A stretch of 20,000 nt of DNA from Candidatus Tectimicrobiota bacterium (lineage in GTDB: Bacteria; JACPUC01). The notes under the pieces are model-generated. The model saw only the letters and a program-made list of their open reading frames with translations, searched no databases and was not told the origin of the DNA. The position numbers were made by a program, and so were the translations under genes. Location of the stretch: contig JACPUC010000012.1 in the NCBI GenBank assembly GCA_016192455.1, forward strand, positions 109,735 to 129,734, read 5' to 3'. Position 1 is the first letter of the stretch. The number at the start of each line of letters is the position of its first letter. This document shows, one piece after another, positions 1,579 to 8,284 of the stretch.

Positions 1579-2031
1579 ATGAAGAAAATCAAAGATGTCA
1601 TGACAGACAGGCCCATAGTAATCAATAGCAATGCTACAGTCTTGGAAGCGCTAAAGCTCATGAGCAGCGCTGGCGAGATTCGGCACCTTCCGGTCATGGA
1701 TGGGCAACAACTCGTTGGCATCGTTACGTCACGAGATCTGAAATCCTATGTCGGTCACTGGTCCAGCATGTCTATAGATGGGCTCTTAAAAAAGGAGCGT
1801 CTGGATCGTCCGATCTCGCGCTTGATGACGAGGAATGTAACAACGGTATCGCCCGAGGACTCTGTTGTCAAAGCAACCAAACTTTTTGGCAGTAAAAAGA
1901 TTGGAGCGCTGCCTGTTATTGAAGATGGGAAGCTCGTCGGCATCATCAGCTATGTCGATCTCCTGAATCGTTTCATCGTGCCTTCTATTTTAGAGACACA
2001 AGAGAAGAACCCGGAAACCAAGGAGGGGTGA
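1579..2031 (+). CDS. Tandem CBS-domain protein (AcuB-like CBS pair, no ACT domain)
   Basis: 150 aa with two CBS repeats: IKDVMT..IRHLPVMDGQQLVGIVTSRDL and LMTRNVTTVSPED..IGALPVIEDGKLVGIISYVDL. RBS AGGAG upstream. Much lower GC than the flanks. Confidence 0.92.
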   Translation: MKKIKDVMTDRPIVINSNATVLEALKLMSSAGEIRHLPVMDGQQLVGIVTSRDLKSYVGHWSSMSIDGLLKKERLDRPISRLMTRNVTTVSPEDSVVKATKLFGSKKIGALPVIEDGKLVGIISYVDLLNRFIVPSILETQEKNPETKEG

Positions 2032-2471
2032 TGCGCGCGTTCAGTAAGAGGAAGTTGAGCTGGGCGATTATTGTGATGGTTTGGAGAATGAAAAGGAGTC
2101 AAATCTTCTCTTAGTTGGGCAGCAACCCGTTCTCTCACACTGACACGTAGCTTCTTTGTCAGCCCCTATTTTGATCGCATCGGATCGCACCCTCTTCTCC
2201 CACTCCAGAGATTCAAACGCCAAAGCACGCAGCAGTTACTCGCACGGTCAGGTCGTAGAAACGCTGCTCGAAAAGCATCGTGACCTTCCTCGGCGCATTT
2301 CCTGGAAATTGAATGCAAAGCGGGCAAGCCCGAAGGGCGCCAAAAGGCGCCCGGGGAGAACTTCGTGTCACTATCGAGACTGAGATTAAGACCCAGCCTT
2401 CGCAGCCGTTTGGGCCAGAGGAACTTCTTCAAAGTTTCAGTTTCCAGTTGCCTATGGCGTAATGGGACAAC

Positions 2472-3761
2472 TCATGAACCGCGTGCTGCCGCGGCAGCGG
2501 TGGCGGCGGCCGCCACCGGGAGGATGGGGCTGACGGTGAAGCGCAGGGCGCGGTGGGCTTGGCGCAGAGCCTGCTCGACCTGCTGCGGCGAGTCGCCGCG
2601 GGCGAAGATGAAGCCGAGGTAGCTCCCCCCCTCCGGCAGCGGCAGGAGCGCCTGCGAGCTCTTCGCGGTGATGGTCACCTCGTCAATGCCGTCGACGGCG
2701 CGGGCGGCCTCAATCCCCTCCACCCGCTCGTAGATGCCGGGCCGTTCAATCGGCAGCATCATCACCCCGACGGCCCGATCCTCCCGCCGCGGCTCGATCT
2801 CCAGGCCGAGGGCGTGGCGGATGATGAGCTCCTCCAACGACATGCCGGTGCCGAAGCGCAGGGTGCGCGAGCAGAGTCCACCGATGGCGCGCGCGGCGAT
2901 CTCGAGGATGCGCGGCCCCTGCGGCGTCAGGCGCAGCTCGGCGTGAATCGGTCCGCGCACGAGCCCCAGGGCGCGGCAGGCGCGGTCGACCTCCTTGACC
3001 ATGGCGGCCTGCGTGGCCGCGTCTTCGCGTGACGGCGTGACGAAGAGCGTCTCCTCGAAGAACGGCCCCTCGAGCGGGTCGGGCTTGTCGAAGATCGCCA
3101 GGACGCGCAGCACGCCGTTGTCCAGCAACCCCTCCAGCGTCGCCTCGCGCCCCTCAAGGTAGCCCTCGACGAGAATCCAGTCGTCCGCCTCATCGCGCCG
3201 CACGCGCACCTCCGCGGTCCGCAGGAGCGCCGCAACGCGGCGGAAGGCGACGACGAACTCCGCCGGCCCGCCGGCCCGCACCACCCCGCGGCTGGCGGAG
3301 AGCGCCAACGGCTTCAGCACGCAGGGGTAGGCCACCTGGCGCGCGGCGTCCGCCGCATCGGCGTCCAGGGGGAAGCGCGCGAACGGCGGCACGCTCACGC
3401 CCGCGGCGCGCAGGAGCCGGCGCGCCAGGTACTTGTTGCGGCAGGCCGCGGCCGCGGTACTCGGGTTGTGGGGCAAGCCGAGCCGGGCGCTGGCCAGCGC
3501 CGCCGTGCGCACCGGCAGGTCGCCCACCGCCACGATGCCGTGGATGGGATGCTCGCGGGCGTACCGTTCGATGACGCGCGCCGCCGTCCGCGGTTGGTTG
3601 AACCGCAGCGCCAGGGCGCCATCGTGCCAGGGGTCGTCGAGGGAGTGGCAATGATCGGTGCCGAGGGTCACCGCCACGCCGAGCCGCTGGGCGGCGGCGG
3701 CGAAGTCGCGTCCCTCGTACCCCGTCGTGGCGAAGAGGAGGAGGAGCCGTTTCTCATCCAT
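2472..3761 (-). CDS. ATP-grasp domain protein, L-amino-acid-ligase-like
   Basis: Motifs CRNKY..R, YPCVLKPLALSASRGV, ILVEGYLEGRE, HAELRL, LEIAAR and a C-terminal LAL-type domain (VEGIEAARAVDGI...YLGFIFARG). Start placed at MDEKRLLLL (3761); in-frame upstream starts exist up to 3830. Confidence 0.88.
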   Translation of the reverse strand: MDEKRLLLLFATTGYEGRDFAAAAQRLGVAVTLGTDHCHSLDDPWHDGALALRFNQPRTAARVIERYAREHPIHGIVAVGDLPVRTAALASARLGLPHNPSTAAAACRNKYLARRLLRAAGVSVPPFARFPLDADAADAARQVAYPCVLKPLALSASRGVVRAGGPAEFVVAFRRVAALLRTAEVRVRRDEADDWILVEGYLEGREATLEGLLDNGVLRVLAIFDKPDPLEGPFFEETLFVTPSREDAATQAAMVKEVDRACRALGLVRGPIHAELRLTPQGPRILEIAARAIGGLCSRTLRFGTGMSLEELIIRHALGLEIEPRREDRAVGVMMLPIERPGIYERVEGIEAARAVDGIDEVTITAKSSQALLPLPEGGSYLGFIFARGDSPQQVEQALRQAHRALRFTVSPILPVAAAATAAAAARGS

Positions 3762-3884
3762 GGCGCCGATCTTCCCGCGGGAACGTGAGGTCATCCTGAT
3801 TGAGCCGGCAGCCATGCTACCCCGGCGCACCTAGGCCTCGGGCGTACCCGATCATCCCTCTGCTGCCAGTCGATCTCTACGCGG

Positions 3885-5300
3885 TTACAGGAGAGCTACC
3901 TGCTCTTCGGTCGGTTCAGCTCAGCAGTACCAGGGCTCGTTCAGGAAGGGGATGCCCTGCCTCAGCGTGCCGCGCATCGCCAGCGACGGCGGCGTCCGCC
4001 CCGCCGCCTCGTGGGCCGCCTGCCAGAGCTGCGCAAAGAGCCGCCGCCGCGTCAGGCCCTGCTGCTCCCCCTCCTTGACGAGCGCCTGCAGGGTCCAGCA
4101 GAGCGTATCCAGGCGGGGATCGCTGTGCGACCAGGGGTAGGAGAGGGAGTCGGGAGCAAAGTCGCCGACCAGGCGCTGCACCTCCTGCAGCTCCAACAGC
4201 CGCGACCCGGCAGGGAGGAGGAGACGCATGGCGAGCTGGATGGGCGCCACGTTCTCGACCAGGTCGAGCTCGACGAGCACCCGCAGGAGCTCCAGGTAGG
4301 TCTCGAAGGTCGTCCAGGGCGAGAAGGGAACGAAGGTCGGCGCCAGCGTCACCCCCGCCTCGCGGCAGCGCGCCGCCACGCGGTGGAAATCGTCGCGCGT
4401 ATGCCCCTTGTCGAGGAGGCGGAGGAAACGATCATCGACCGACTCGACGGCGCTGGTCACGAAAGCGCAGCCGGTGCGGCGCAGCGTTTCGAGGTGCTCC
4501 GCATGCCGCAGCAGGTGCTGCACCTTGATCGTCACATCGTAGGTGAGGGCGGGGAACTCGTCGTGCAGCGCTTCCACCAGGGCCAGCGCGTGCCGCACGC
4601 CGTTGAAGAAGTCGGGATCGCCGAAAGTGAGGTGCCGCGCCCCCGCCGCCACCTGCTGCCGGATGTCGGCCAGGACCACCTGGCGCTGCACGATGCGGAA
4701 CTGTCCGTTGTAGACGGGCACGATGGGGCAATGCCGGCAGCGGTGCTTGCAGCCGCGGCTCGCCTCGGTGTAGCCGGCGAGGCGCGTCTCGCCATCGGGG
4801 AGGAGGAGCTGGGCGTAGCGATGCAGGGGGGGCAGCCCACGGCGCTCGGGCACCTTGAAGGGGAGCTTGTCGAGGGAGATGACCGGCTCGCCCTGCGATT
4901 GGTCGCGGCGCGCGGCGCCCGGGGAGGCGCCGGCGAGACGCAGGCGCTCCACCATGCGCACCAGGCCGGGTTCGAACTCGCCGCCCAGGATGGTCTGCGC
5001 CCCGAGCCGCCTGAGGTACGCCTCGTTCATCGGCGCGTAGAGTCCGTAGAAGCAGAGGTGCGCGCGGGGATTGAGTTGCCTCACCCTGTCGAGCAGGCGC
5101 GCCGCCAGCTTGGTGGCGGTGTGCATCGGCACGTAGAAGGCCACCGCATCGGCACAACTCACCTCGTCCTCGCGCAGCGGCTCCTTCGCCAAGTCCTGGC
5201 AGGAGACGGCGACGCCCGCCTGCGTCAGCCACGCCGCGGGCGAGGCGAGGCCGAAGGGCTGGCGGCCGAGGTCGTAGGTGGAGATGAGGACAACCCGCAT
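3885..5300 (-). CDS. CUAEP/CCAEP-tail radical SAM selenoprotein (471 aa if the UGA at 3921-3923 is read as Sec)
   Basis: CxxxCxxC motif (SRGCKHRCRHCP), N-terminal B12-binding-like domain, TFGDPDF. The 3' end reads TGG TAC TGC TGA GCT GAA CCG ACC GAA GAG CAG GTA GCT CTC CTG TAA = WYC-U-AEPTEEQVALL*. Confidence 0.9.
3892..3906 (-). promoter_or_regulatory. Putative bacterial SECIS hairpin
   Basis: Minus strand AGAGC-AGGUA-GCUCU: a 5-bp stem with a G-containing loop that begins 20 nt after the in-frame UGA. Confidence 0.65.
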
Positions 5301-5372
5301 GGGATCGGACGTTTCTGAACGGCGCTCGGGTGAGCCTAATGAGGGATGGGAGGCCGGCCTCGCGGCGCCGGC

Positions 5373-5678
5373 TTACATCTTGCCTTGCGGCGGCACATAG
5401 CCCGGCGGCAACGCGGCATCCTCGCCAAAGAAGAACTCTTCCATCTGAGAGAGGATGAGCTCGTCCGATTCAGGCTCCGACGGCGTGAGCCGATACTCAT
5501 TGATGACCATGATGAGGAACTCCTTCCACATCTCCCACGCCCGCTGCGAGACGTTCTCGTAGATGCGCGCGGCCAGCTCTTCCGGAGCCATCAGCTTGAC
5601 GATCTCGTAGGTCGTCTCATCAATGCCGGGGAGCTCTTCTGACAGCTTGATGCACTTCACCATGCGCGGCTCGGCCAT
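5373..5678 (-). CDS. yggX: Fe(II)-trafficking / oxidative damage protection protein YggX
   Basis: RMVKCIKL...RIYENVSQRAW..W....MVINEYRL...QMEEFFFG......GYVPP is the YggX signature. RBS AAGGAG lies before ATG 5678. 101 aa. Confidence 0.9.
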   Translation of the reverse strand: MAEPRMVKCIKLSEELPGIDETTYEIVKLMAPEELAARIYENVSQRAWEMWKEFLIMVINEYRLTPSEPESDELILSQMEEFFFGEDAALPPGYVPPQGKM

Positions 5679-5744
5679 ACCGTGTCTCCTTGTGGCGAAA
5701 CCCTTGCGCCAACGACCATGCGAAGGCGGCCCATCCTGAGCTTC

Positions 5745-5772
5745 AGTATAGTACACGAGCGGGGGGGAACAA
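5745..5772 (-). promoter_or_regulatory. Putative sigma70 promoter upstream of yggX
   Basis: Minus strand TTGTTC-16 nt-TATACT, about 67 nt upstream of the yggX start. Confidence 0.45.
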
Positions 5773-5810
5773 GCGCTTCTGCCGCCGCGATGTCGCGCCG
5801 CCCCGCCCCC

Positions 5811-6671
5811 TCAGCGGAAGAGCGTCACCAGGCTGGCGCCCAGCACGATCAGGCAGGTGGCGGCGACCACCCGCGTCGTGATGAACTCGCTGTCGCGCAG
5901 CAGCAGGAGGCTGAGGACCATCGAGAAGAGCGGCGCGGTGTTCATGAGGGTGGTCACCACGATGATGTTGCCGAGCTGCAAGGACTTGAAATTGGCGTAG
6001 ACCGCGACCAGGGAGAAGACGCCGGCGCCGCTGAAATGCAGGAGACTCCGCCTGTCGCCGACGAGACCGCGGCCGTGGCTGCGCAGCAGGGAGACGCCGA
6101 CGAGGCAGAGCATGCCGCTCGTGATGGTGATCGCCGCGCCGGCCATGGCATGCGGGTAGAGCTGCAGGCCAAGCTGGCGGAGATTGACCGACACGCCGAA
6201 GGTCAGGGCCGAGAGAATCGGGAAGAGGAAGGCCGCCCGTTGCCTCCGGCCTTCCTCGCGTGGCGCCGTGAGCAGCGCCACGCCACCCACGCAGACGAGG
6301 GTCCCGAGCACCAGCGGCAGCCGCGCCGGCTCGCCGAACGCCGCGATGGCGACCAGCATGGTCACGATCGGCATGGTGGCGATCACCGGGTGGGCGCGCG
6401 TGACGCCCAGCCGGGCGATGCCAAGGAAGCCGAAGTACCTCCCCAGCGCCGGCGAGAGCAACCCGGCGAGGATGAAGATGACGAGGGCCTTGGCGGGGAT
6501 GCTGTCGATCCCACCCGTCCCCAGGAGGATCGACCAGTAGACGAGAATGTTCACGAAGGTGGAGATGACCGTTGCGGAGATCGGTGAGGCGGTGCGCATG
6601 CCCCACTTGGCGAAGATGTTGCTGGCGCCGAACCCGAAGGCGCTGAGCAGGGCGAAGGCCACCGCGAGCAT
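5811..6671 (-). CDS. DMT/EamA family transporter
   Basis: About 286 aa of repeated hydrophobic segments in two EamA halves (ALLSAFGFGASNIFAK...GIARLGVTRAHPV..TMP; ..LQLGNIIVVTTLMNTAPLF). Start moved to ATG 6671, which has GAGG upstream. Confidence 0.9.
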   Translation of the reverse strand: MLAVAFALLSAFGFGASNIFAKWGMRTASPISATVISTFVNILVYWSILLGTGGIDSIPAKALVIFILAGLLSPALGRYFGFLGIARLGVTRAHPVIATMPIVTMLVAIAAFGEPARLPLVLGTLVCVGGVALLTAPREEGRRQRAAFLFPILSALTFGVSVNLRQLGLQLYPHAMAGAAITITSGMLCLVGVSLLRSHGRGLVGDRRSLLHFSGAGVFSLVAVYANFKSLQLGNIIVVTTLMNTAPLFSMVLSLLLLRDSEFITTRVVAATCLIVLGASLVTLFR

Positions 6672-6892
6672 GGTTGCCTCGACAGCGGAGAGCAGGGTGC
6701 GGCGCCGAGCGAGGCCGCGGAGGCGCCCGCGCGGCCGCCGGGCAGGCGAGCGCCGGTGGACCGCCGCGAAGTTTCGCGCCATACTTCCGGCCGGCGTTGC
6801 CGGCGACGGCCCCTGAAGGGGATCGGGGCGCCCCCCACCGGGCCGGGCAGCTCCGCAGGCCCGCCCGCCGCCCTCGGCCGCGAGGAGGTACG

Positions 6893-8284
6893 ATGACCGT
6901 CGATCTCGCCATTGTCAATGGTACGGTGGTCACACCCGCCGGCCCTCAGCCGCTCACGGTCGCGGTGCGCCAGGAACGTATCGTTGCCCTCAGCGATCGG
7001 GCGCATTGCCCCGCGGCGCGCGAGATCCTCGACGCGAGCGATCTGCACGTGCTTCCCGGGCTGGTGGAGGGGCACGTCCACTTCCGTGAACCGGGCCTGA
7101 CTCAGAAGGAGGACTTCGGCAGCGGCTCGGCGGCCGCGGTCTGCGGCGGGGTGACGACGGTGATCGACATGCCGAACACCGTGCCGCCCACCGCCGACGC
7201 GCAGAGCCTGCGGCAAAAGCAAGCCCTGGCGGAGGCCAAGTCGTTGGTTGATTTCGGGCTGCTGGGGGTCATCCTGCCGAACAACCTGCGGCAGCTCCGC
7301 GGCCTGGTGGAGGCCGGCGCCCTGGGGTTGAAGGTCTTCATGGGGATGACGGTGGGCAATCTGCCGGCGCCCGAGGACGGCGACATCCTCGAGGCCTGGA
7401 GGCTGGCCGCAGAGCTGGGAATTCCGGTGGCGGTGCACGCCGAGAGCAGCGTCCTTGTGCACCACTGCACCGAACGGCTGCGCGCCGGCGGCCGCAGCGA
7501 CGCCCTGGCGCACTATGAAGCCCGCCCCGAGATCGCCGAAGAGGAGGCGATCCAGCGCGCCATCCTCCTGGCGGCGGCGGCGGGCGCGCGCCTGCACGTC
7601 CTGCACGTCAGCACGGCCCAGGGGGCGGCGCTGGTGGGGGCGGCGAAACGCCGCGGCGGCGCGGTGAGCGCCGAGACGACGCCGCACTACCTGCTCTTGC
7701 AGAGCGCCGACGCCGCGCGCCTCGGCAACACCATGAAGATCAACCCGCCGGTGCGCGCCGCCGGCCACGCGGAGCAGCTCTGGCAGGCCCTGCGGGGCGG
7801 CGCGATTGACAGCATCGCCACCGACCACGCTCCCCACCTGCCGGAAGAGAAGCGCCGGCGGAACGTCTGGGAGGCCCCGTCGGGGTTCCCCGGCGTGGAG
7901 ACAGCCCTCCCCCTCATGCTCACCCAGGTGAACGCCGGGCGCATGCGCCTCGAGGAGTACGTGCGCTGGCACTGCGAGAACCCGGCGCGCATCTGGGGAC
8001 TCTACCCCCGCAAAGGGGTGATCCAGGTCGGCAGCGACGCCGACCTGACCCTCGTCGATCTCTCCCGCCGCGACGTCATCAGGGCGGCGAACCTGCACAG
8101 CAAGAGCAAGGTAACGCCCTATGAGGGGTGGGAGGTGCAAGGCGTGCCGGTCTGCACCCTGGTGCGGGGCCAGATCGTCATGCGGGAGGGACAGCTCGTG
8201 GGCAGGCCGCGGGGACGGATGCTCTGGCCAAGCCGCGAGGCAAGGGCGGGCAGGGCCTCTGATGACGCCGCGCGACTCGCATGA
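6893..8284 (+). CDS. Cyclic amidohydrolase, allantoinase (AllB) / type I dihydroorotase family
   Basis: Motifs PGLVEGHVHFREPG, GGVTTVIDMPNT, KVFM, HAE, LHVS, ETTPHYL, KINPPVR, ATDHAPH and APSGFPGVE. RBS GAGGAGG before ATG 6893. Confidence 0.92.
   Translation: MTVDLAIVNGTVVTPAGPQPLTVAVRQERIVALSDRAHCPAAREILDASDLHVLPGLVEGHVHFREPGLTQKEDFGSGSAAAVCGGVTTVIDMPNTVPPTADAQSLRQKQALAEAKSLVDFGLLGVILPNNLRQLRGLVEAGALGLKVFMGMTVGNLPAPEDGDILEAWRLAAELGIPVAVHAESSVLVHHCTERLRAGGRSDALAHYEARPEIAEEEAIQRAILLAAAAGARLHVLHVSTAQGAALVGAAKRRGGAVSAETTPHYLLLQSADAARLGNTMKINPPVRAAGHAEQLWQALRGGAIDSIATDHAPHLPEEKRRRNVWEAPSGFPGVETALPLMLTQVNAGRMRLEEYVRWHCENPARIWGLYPRKGVIQVGSDADLTLVDLSRRDVIRAANLHSKSKVTPYEGWEVQGVPVCTLVRGQIVMREGQLVGRPRGRMLWPSREARAGRASDDAARLA

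Follow-up and report, generated by a model that had tools for sequence, protein, structure and literature searches.

ArsL is a radical S-adenosylmethionine (SAM) enzyme of arsinothricin biosynthesis that cleaves SAM to 5'-methylthioadenosine and a 3-amino-3-carboxypropyl (ACP) radical. Its C-terminal RCCLKC tail is required for binding of As(III) and for formation of the C-As bond and is dispensable for SAM cleavage and for iron-sulfur content, as stated in the accessible portion of the preprint, where the discussion is confined to the RCCLKC family itself (10.1101/2024.02.01.577332). A second account, in the part of it that is accessible, has the arsenic bound by all three tail cysteines and proposes that the arsenic nucleophile attacks an organometallic Fe-C(gamma) species (10.64898/2026.04.29.721666). 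Another radical SAM family is defined by NF040546 (NCBIfam CUAEP/CCAEP-tail radical SAM (seleno)protein). The available text of Haft (2022, bioRxiv 10.1101/2022.07.06.499078) lists it as an uncharacterised CU-motif selenoprotein and reports that CU motifs cluster in heavy-metal-handling proteins; in the literature, we found no established reaction or characterisation for the CUAEP/CCAEP-tail family. Here we analyzed a 20,000-nucleotide stretch (the window) of the genome of Candidatus Tectimicrobiota bacterium (assembly GCA_016192455.1, contig JACPUC010000012.1), which carries a gene of this family with an in-frame UGA that very probably encodes selenocysteine (Sec, U) directly after a cysteine.

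The open reading frame (ORF) lies on the minus strand and starts with ATG at 5300-5298. In a plain reading of the frame the translation ends with ...GIPFLNEPWYC, and the ORF list accordingly gives a protein of 459 amino acids (3921..5300); the database copy (P0002) has the same truncated form. Cys459 is encoded by TGC (3926-3924), and codon 460 is an in-frame TGA (3923-3921). The codons that follow, GCT GAA CCG ACC GAA GAG CAG GTA GCT CTC CTG (3920-3888), encode AEPTEEQVALL and are closed by a TAA (3887-3885), so that the product with read-through has 471 amino acids. The initial annotation, made from the letters and their ORFs, had described an ORF ending with ...LNEPWYC followed by TGA, this tail, and TAA, and had given the coordinates 3885-3923; on the minus strand, these span exactly the TGA through the true stop. 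As eleven open codons past a stop are unremarkable by chance, it is homology that lifts the feature above chance.

We compared 85 loci, consisting of the best 80 of at least 594 confirmed matches in contigs of a one-genome-per-species set, 4 from 100 other sampled genomes, and the window. TGA occupies the position equivalent to codon 460 in 54 loci, and the Cys codons TGC and TGT occupy it in 26 and 5, respectively. In the protein alignment, the second Cys of the Cys forms stands opposite U460, and AEPT..Q is kept in both forms. AEP follows in frame in 84 of the 85 loci; in the other, the contig breaks off after AE. Among 53 UGA forms, the Ala-Glu-Pro codons are fixed at their first and second positions, whereas 4, 2, and 4 bases, respectively, occur at their third positions; such a pattern is the signature of translated sequence after the UGA. 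A Cys opposite the UGA and conservation of AEP(T) beyond it were what the initial annotation had proposed to look for in homologues, and both are present, with 31 Cys codons against 54 TGA codons and with the motif retained in UGA and Cys forms alike. Its expectation that standard gene callers would truncate the protein is borne out as well: 108 of the best 120 database homologues stop precisely at ...EPW[YF]C, and the other 12 run on with ...CCAEP.... We also used two genome samples drawn without regard to the feature. A random sample of 101 genomes contained five carriers, each with one TGA, and an even sample of 201 Acidobacteriota genomes contained 31 carriers, 28 of them with one TGA. The tails beyond the motif fall into length classes of 11-13, 18-19, and 25-32 residues, and the long ones end in a conserved ...[AS][DE]x[FY][VIL] (family loci L018-L097).

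The genome (4.46 Mb in 31 contigs, 88% complete) has the machinery for Sec insertion. The genes selA (C23:42751-44103, 596 bits) and selB (C23:40655-42544, 366 bits) are side by side, selD is at C3:190907-191827 (locus L010:1441-2520, 389 bits), and tRNA-Sec (selC) with the anticodon tca is on contig C8; thus, all four genes for which the initial annotation had suggested a search are present. The selD gene is itself a Sec gene, having an in-frame TGA at the catalytic-site position (...VKVAG-U-AAKLGPGDL). A small hairpin lies ~15 nt past this UGA, the same spacing as in the radical SAM gene. The presence of a second Sec gene in the genome speaks for the Sec system being in use. Selenium as a substrate of the enzyme was also considered. 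This predicted an enrichment of selD in carriers beyond their own need for Sec, which was not seen: selD was found in 25 of 31 Cys-form carriers versus a phylum background of 163 of 201, a tally that counts three unpublished genomes (G179, G276, and G154) on which the enrichment claim partly leans. The idea was not supported. The selA gene was found in 25 of the 31 Cys-form carrier genomes, and neither selD nor selA was found in four Cys-form carriers, one of them a 10.8-Mb Nonomuraea genome.

Downstream of the UGA, the window has a hairpin that resembles a selenocysteine insertion sequence (SECIS). Its stem begins 17 nt after the U of UGA, and the loop G is 23 nt from that U; the bacterial SECIS range is 16-37 nt. 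In the 53 UGA forms, a hairpin sits 15-30 nt past the UGA in one of two registers, with either a 5-nt loop, AGGUN/AGUUN (23 sequences, including the window), or a 4-nt loop, AGUU (30 sequences). The cells are 90.1% and 90.0% paired in the two register classes, percentages that are inflated because the classes were picked by best pairing. When the partner strand is slid by 1-3 columns, pairing drops to 50-60% and 32-60%, respectively. Compensatory changes are seen at 5 and 2 pairs in the two classes (one position, for instance, has G-C, A-U, and C-G), and the observed pairing or covariation score was reached by none of 500 shuffles. Two controls are independent of the choice of register. The mean folding energy of the stretch from +13 to +38 is -10.6 kcal/mol in the 53 UGA forms versus -3.8 kcal/mol in the 31 Cys forms, a difference without a meaningful P value because the sequences are related to each other, and when the same two structures are imposed on the Cys forms, 45.6% and 51.6% of cells are paired, no better than in shuffles. 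As far as the aligned sequences tell, a hairpin with compensatory changes is kept in the UGA forms and not in the Cys forms. Short post-motif tails go together with the 5-nt loop, and long-tailed UGA forms have the hairpin with the 4-nt loop.

Apart from the inflation mentioned above, several results weigh against such a decoding signal in the window. The window hairpin has -6.0 kcal/mol, and 20 of 200 shuffles fold equally well. The minimum-energy fold of the 45 nt past the UGA is another hairpin (z = -0.02), and longer single-sequence folds of the region (z = +1.17 and +0.65) gave no significant structure. RNAalifold on all 53 UGA forms yielded three pairs only, because the helix occupies two registers. 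A search of the window with Rfam at gathering thresholds gave no match.

We considered whether the TGA is a genuine stop, in which case the protein would have 459 residues and end with ...WYC, and the downstream AEP would be the relic of a former Cys-form gene. Standard ORF calling and the 108 truncated database entries end there, and the hairpin of the window does not stand out from shuffled sequences. A relic would decay, however, and AEP is invariant after 53 of 53 UGA codons while its third positions vary freely, which disfavors this explanation. In addition, 84 of 85 loci have an open frame to the conserved tail end, only UGA forms retain the hairpin with its compensatory changes, the genome has the complete Sec machinery as well as a further Sec gene, selD, and most carriers in two independent genome samples are UGA forms. 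A true stop is thus highly improbable. From the sequence comparisons, the UGA at 3923-3921 is very probably decoded as Sec by SelA, SelB, SelC, and SelD, guided by the hairpin within the last eleven codons (3906..3892), to give a 471-residue NF040546 selenoprotein with a Cys459-Sec460 pair in the motif EPWYC-U-AEP near the C terminus. The recoding signals and the Sec machinery agree with the vicinal Cys-Sec pair and the length proposed in the initial annotation. The Sec had also been called hidden. This holds for naive ORF calling, which does not see it, but not for the family, which is already named and curated as a selenoprotein.

Profile searches were done with the 471-residue protein, in which U was entered as C. 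NF040546 matched with 629.2 bits against a cutoff of 500, with residues 3-469 of the protein on profile positions 1-467/468, so that the alignment runs through the UGA. A genome-level search with the same profile gave 622.6 bits with one TGA in the match. From Pfam, Radical_SAM (PF04055) alone was found (51.8 bits). The residues of the cluster motif are C184-K-H-R-C188-R-H-C191, and the tail motif is W-Y-C459-U460-A-E-P-T, in which C459, position 460, A461, E462, and P463 do not vary across the 78-sequence alignment. The initial annotation had pointed to a radical SAM family with a CUAEP/CCAEP tail and no established reaction, and it was sound on both counts: the equivalog NF040546 includes the protein, and the available text that names the family calls it uncharacterised. 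The window copy shares with NF040546 the full-length match above the cutoff, CxxxCxxC, EPWYC-U-AEP, and the alternation of Sec and Cys at one column, and there is no defining difference. It does have a short post-Sec tail of 11 residues, versus 25-30 residues in many Acidobacteriota copies, and the YggX gene is upstream on the same strand in the window, while elsewhere in the family it is usually downstream on the opposite strand. The gene is a further member of an already curated selenoprotein family and adds no new concept to it. A search limited to the phylum in the one-genome-per-species set returned the window's genome only. The features of the locus are listed in Table 1.

Table 1. Features of the CUAEP-tail radical SAM locus in the window
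Feature	Coordinates	Strand	Basis or remark
Radical SAM selenoprotein gene, NF040546	3885..5300	minus	471 codons plus TAA; profile match
In-frame UGA, codon 460, predicted to be read as Sec, next to Cys459	3921..3923	minus	TGA/Cys alternation in 85 loci
Post-Sec tail AEPTEEQVALL	3888..3920	minus	A461, E462, and P463 invariant in the family
TAA, predicted true stop	3885..3887	minus	Frame reading
SECIS-like hairpin AGAGC-AGGUA-GCUCU, 5 bp, 5-nt loop	3892..3906	minus	Strong comparative support; weak on its own sequence
Radical SAM cluster motif CxxxCxxC (C184, C188, C191)	4728..4751	minus	Invariant in 78/78 aligned sequences
Cys278, invariant family-specific Cys	4467..4469	minus	Val in two RCCLKC-tail relatives
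ATP-grasp protein, L-amino-acid-ligase type, 429 amino acids	2472..3761	minus	Start lies 123 nt past the end of the radical SAM gene; Pfam ATP-grasp_4, LAL_C2, ATPgrasp_N
YggX-like Fe(2+)-trafficking/oxidative-damage protection protein, 101 amino acids	5373..5678	minus	Stops 72 nt before the radical SAM start codon
EamA transporter	5811..6782	minus	Upstream of the YggX-like gene

The runner-up among the NCBIfam models is NF040542 (ArsL, RCCLKC-tail), with 287.7 bits; its cutoff of 450 was not reached, and the alignment stops at residue 412, ahead of the tail. The window protein has 35% identity over 420 residues to an RCCLKC-tail protein of Priestia. Judged by sequence, ArsL is its closest and only characterised relative. 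Both proteins have an N-terminal Rossmann-like domain, a radical SAM barrel, and a Cys-rich C-terminal motif. Whereas ArsL has three As(III)-binding cysteines in its tail, the CUAEP family has two tail chalcogens. Two other cysteines, Cys278 and Cys83, are specific to the CUAEP family, and the RCCLKC proteins have Val and Thr at these positions. In a tally of 80 family sequences, with six of the 85 loci dropped as the N-terminal anchor motif was not found in them, Cys278 is present in 80, Cys83 in 76, C459 in 80, and the chalcogen at position 460 in 79 sequences; the 78-row alignment agrees. Nine residues of the EPWYC-U-AEP motif are invariant.

In Bacillaceae, RCCLKC genes are found in arsenic islands on a Priestia megaterium plasmid (L099:1483-6275) and on pBc10987 of Bacillus cereus ATCC 10987 (L100:1444-7275). 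These islands hold genes for an aquaporin, a CobW-like GTPase, ArsR, ArsI, and ArsN1 as well as arsRBCDA. An ATP-grasp gene lies 3-4.5 kb from the RCCLKC genes, beside an arsR gene, and its product has 27% identity over 240 amino acids to the ATP-grasp protein of the window. Because of this homologue near the Bacillaceae RCCLKC genes, a ligase may accompany both sister families, CUAEP and RCCLKC.

An AlphaFold model, built on 78 sequences, has a mean predicted local distance difference test score (pLDDT) of 92.4 and a predicted template modeling (TM) score of 0.91. The pLDDT is 66 in the linker (residues 441-450), rises to 82 in the motif block (residues 451-460), which has short strand bridges, and is below 55 in the last residues. 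The higher value of the motif block relative to the linker suggests that in the model the motif docks rather than dangles as a free tip. Searching the PDB by sequence for relatives of the radical SAM protein yielded no match at an E value of 0.001. The fold search returned only distant class-B-like relatives, AprD4, TsrM, and OxsB (TM scores of 0.65-0.68), and no ArsL structure.

By analogy with ArsL, our preferred mechanism is a transfer of ACP in which the acceptor would be either an atom bound by the tail or the selenolate of the tail itself, a proposal that we make tentatively. The same selenoprotein could instead use its Cys-Sec tail as a redox arm, in which a radical intermediate would be quenched by electrons or a hydrogen atom relayed through a selenenylsulfide/selenolthiol pair, possibly with ordinary 5'-deoxyadenosyl chemistry. 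Vicinal Cys-Sec near the C terminus is a hallmark of such arms, and mammalian thioredoxin reductase uses C-terminal Gly-Cys-Sec-Gly in this way. Flavoprotein disulfide reductases in general (GCUG of thioredoxin reductase and the Cys pair of MerA) share with the CUAEP proteins a vicinal chalcogen pair near the C terminus and a lower-order linker; their fold and cofactor are unrelated, though, and the CUAEP pair is followed by 11-50 further residues and is part of a nine-residue invariant motif. A redox role would also suit a tail with two chalcogens, as against the three that bind As(III) according to the accessible text on ArsL, and a module that is found without ars genes, also in genomes in which selD and selA were not found. 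The nearest solved fold, AprD4, is a diol dehydratase of the 5'-deoxyadenosyl type. On the other hand, the tail of ArsL, the closest relative by sequence, binds substrate, and its chemistry is not of the 5'-deoxyadenosyl type in the portion of the ArsL literature that is accessible. The invariance of the motif over nine residues and its docked position in the model (pLDDT of 82), as opposed to a free tip, also speak against such an arm. Both this and the kinship with ArsL are compatible with a redox role too. We consider the redox arm rather unlikely.

The radical SAM gene is one of four codirectional minus-strand genes, encoding the EamA, YggX-like, radical SAM, and ATP-grasp proteins, with gaps of 132, 72, and 123 nt, and no terminator-like sites were found between them. 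We clustered all ORFs around the 85 loci to see which neighbors recur. An ATP-grasp gene immediately follows the radical SAM gene, in the same orientation, in 70 loci (69 by tBLASTn with the window protein). Of the other 15 loci, 8 offer under 1.6 kb of downstream sequence, and 7 have at least 3.9 kb. A YggX homologue is present in 55 of the 85 loci, mostly past the ATP-grasp gene and on the opposite strand. Other candidates were rejected as parts of the module: of the 85 loci, that of the window alone has an EamA transporter gene beside the radical SAM gene, and the recurrent neighbors encoding G6PD, glucokinase, Lgt, and a HAD hydrolase reflect lineage or housekeeping synteny in Acidobacteriota.

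The YggX-like protein matches PF04362 with 87.8 bits (cutoff of 27) and NF003817 with 91.8 bits (cutoff of 74). The ATP-grasp protein matches PF13535, PF18603, and PF18130 with 91.4, 64, and 41.5 bits, respectively, and its best solved relative is BL00235 (PDB 3vot; E value of 1.2e-42 over residues 25-403), with BacD (3vmm) at ~1e-13. BL00235 makes Met-Gly and Met-Met according to the available text of a review (PMC6920838, Table 2). The partner shares the fold and the C-terminal domain of the L-amino acid ligases BL00235 and BacD and differs from them in having no equivalog assignment, since it reached no NCBIfam equivalog at its cutoff. By its domains, it is classed as an L-amino-acid ligase. 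Two of the loci without the ATP-grasp gene have other genes next to the radical SAM gene. A locus from a metagenome-assembled genome of Terriglobia (L056:9461-11050) has genes for a DUF169 protein and a SAM-dependent methyltransferase, reminiscent of the ArsL-ArsM pair, and a Nonomuraea locus (L057:6129-11625) has genes for a GCS2-type carboxylate-amine ligase and a class I/II aminotransferase. In the window, the stretch 1392-2432 has a third-position G+C of 0.56-0.58 compared with ~0.9 in neighboring genes. It includes a gene for a CBS-domain pair protein (1579..2031, plus strand), and the sole promoter-like and terminator-like sites of a scan of 2000-7000 fall within it.

The conserved residues and the iron-handling neighbor bear on another explanation, in which Cys83, Cys278, Cys459, and Sec460 would ligate an auxiliary iron-sulfur cluster that is consumed or used for insertion of S or Se; this would explain a YggX or Nfu-type helper. 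Four family-specific chalcogens are conserved to the degree tallied above, a gene for iron handling accompanies the module at 55 of 85 loci, and the auxiliary-cluster enzymes MiaB and RimO are among the structural neighbors. Adjacent residues, though, rarely ligate one cluster, C83 is not invariant, and no SPASM or twitch-like Cys-rich domain was found in the NCBIfam and Pfam profile searches. Moreover, removal of the ArsL tail left the iron and sulfur content unchanged, as described in the accessible portion of the preprint (10.1101/2024.02.01.577332). An auxiliary cluster is therefore a quite improbable role for these residues.

In the preferred ArsL-like ACP transfer, SAM would be cleaved at the C-gamma-S bond as in ArsL, and ACP would be passed to the atom held by the tail or to the tail selenolate, with Cys278 as a possible third ligand. 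This would yield a methionine-like amino acid that the neighboring L-amino-acid ligase might join into a dipeptide. The YggX-like partner may keep the oxygen-sensitive iron-sulfur cluster working, which would protect it in aerobes. Several observations weigh against this proposal. The regiochemistry of SAM cleavage is not readable from sequence, and the score of the window protein stays below the ArsL cutoff. The RCCLKC proteins end with ...KRCCLKC, whereas the window protein ends with ...EPWYCUAEPTEEQVALL, with the C-U (or C-C) pair of the family in a longer C-terminal region, ~47 residues further from the core. Among the window genes, no ars genes (arsM, resistance, or transport) were found. 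Finally, the ATP-grasp gene is missing from 7 of the 77 loci in which the downstream sequence is long enough.

A more specific form of the proposal, which is a little more doubtful, is that the Cys-Sec tail and Cys278 together make up a three-chalcogen site that replaces the three tail cysteines of ArsL. An iron-bound ACP would then forge a C-Se, C-S, or C-metalloid bond, Sec being favored as the better nucleophile or ligand, and the new methionine-like amino acid would end up in a dipeptide that could act as an antimetabolite or in metal handling.

A UGA form is also present in a cultured organism, Thermomicrobium roseum DSM 5159, on the megaplasmid NC_011961 (L098, locus 5935-7440). This copy is annotated as ending with ...ESWFC, and its frame runs on with U-AEPLEDPSGP.... 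Its neighbors encode a pyridoxal phosphate-dependent aminotransferase and a major facilitator superfamily transporter, and the locus is without the ATP-grasp gene. Neither selA nor selD was found on the megaplasmid, the search having covered the megaplasmid and not the chromosome.

The stored database forms of this gene and of most of its relatives are without the residues that are likely to do the chemistry. The family is common, being present in 31 of 201 sampled Acidobacteriota genomes and in at least 594 confirmed matches, and shows a tight pairing with an amino-acid ligase; soil bacteria widely carry the module. The only studied relative of the family carries out a rare kind of radical SAM reaction. 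The cultured carrier T. roseum DSM 5159 makes the chemistry testable, and learning what the Cys-Sec tail holds or attacks would define a new reaction and would probably also bring to light a natural amino acid or dipeptide not seen before.

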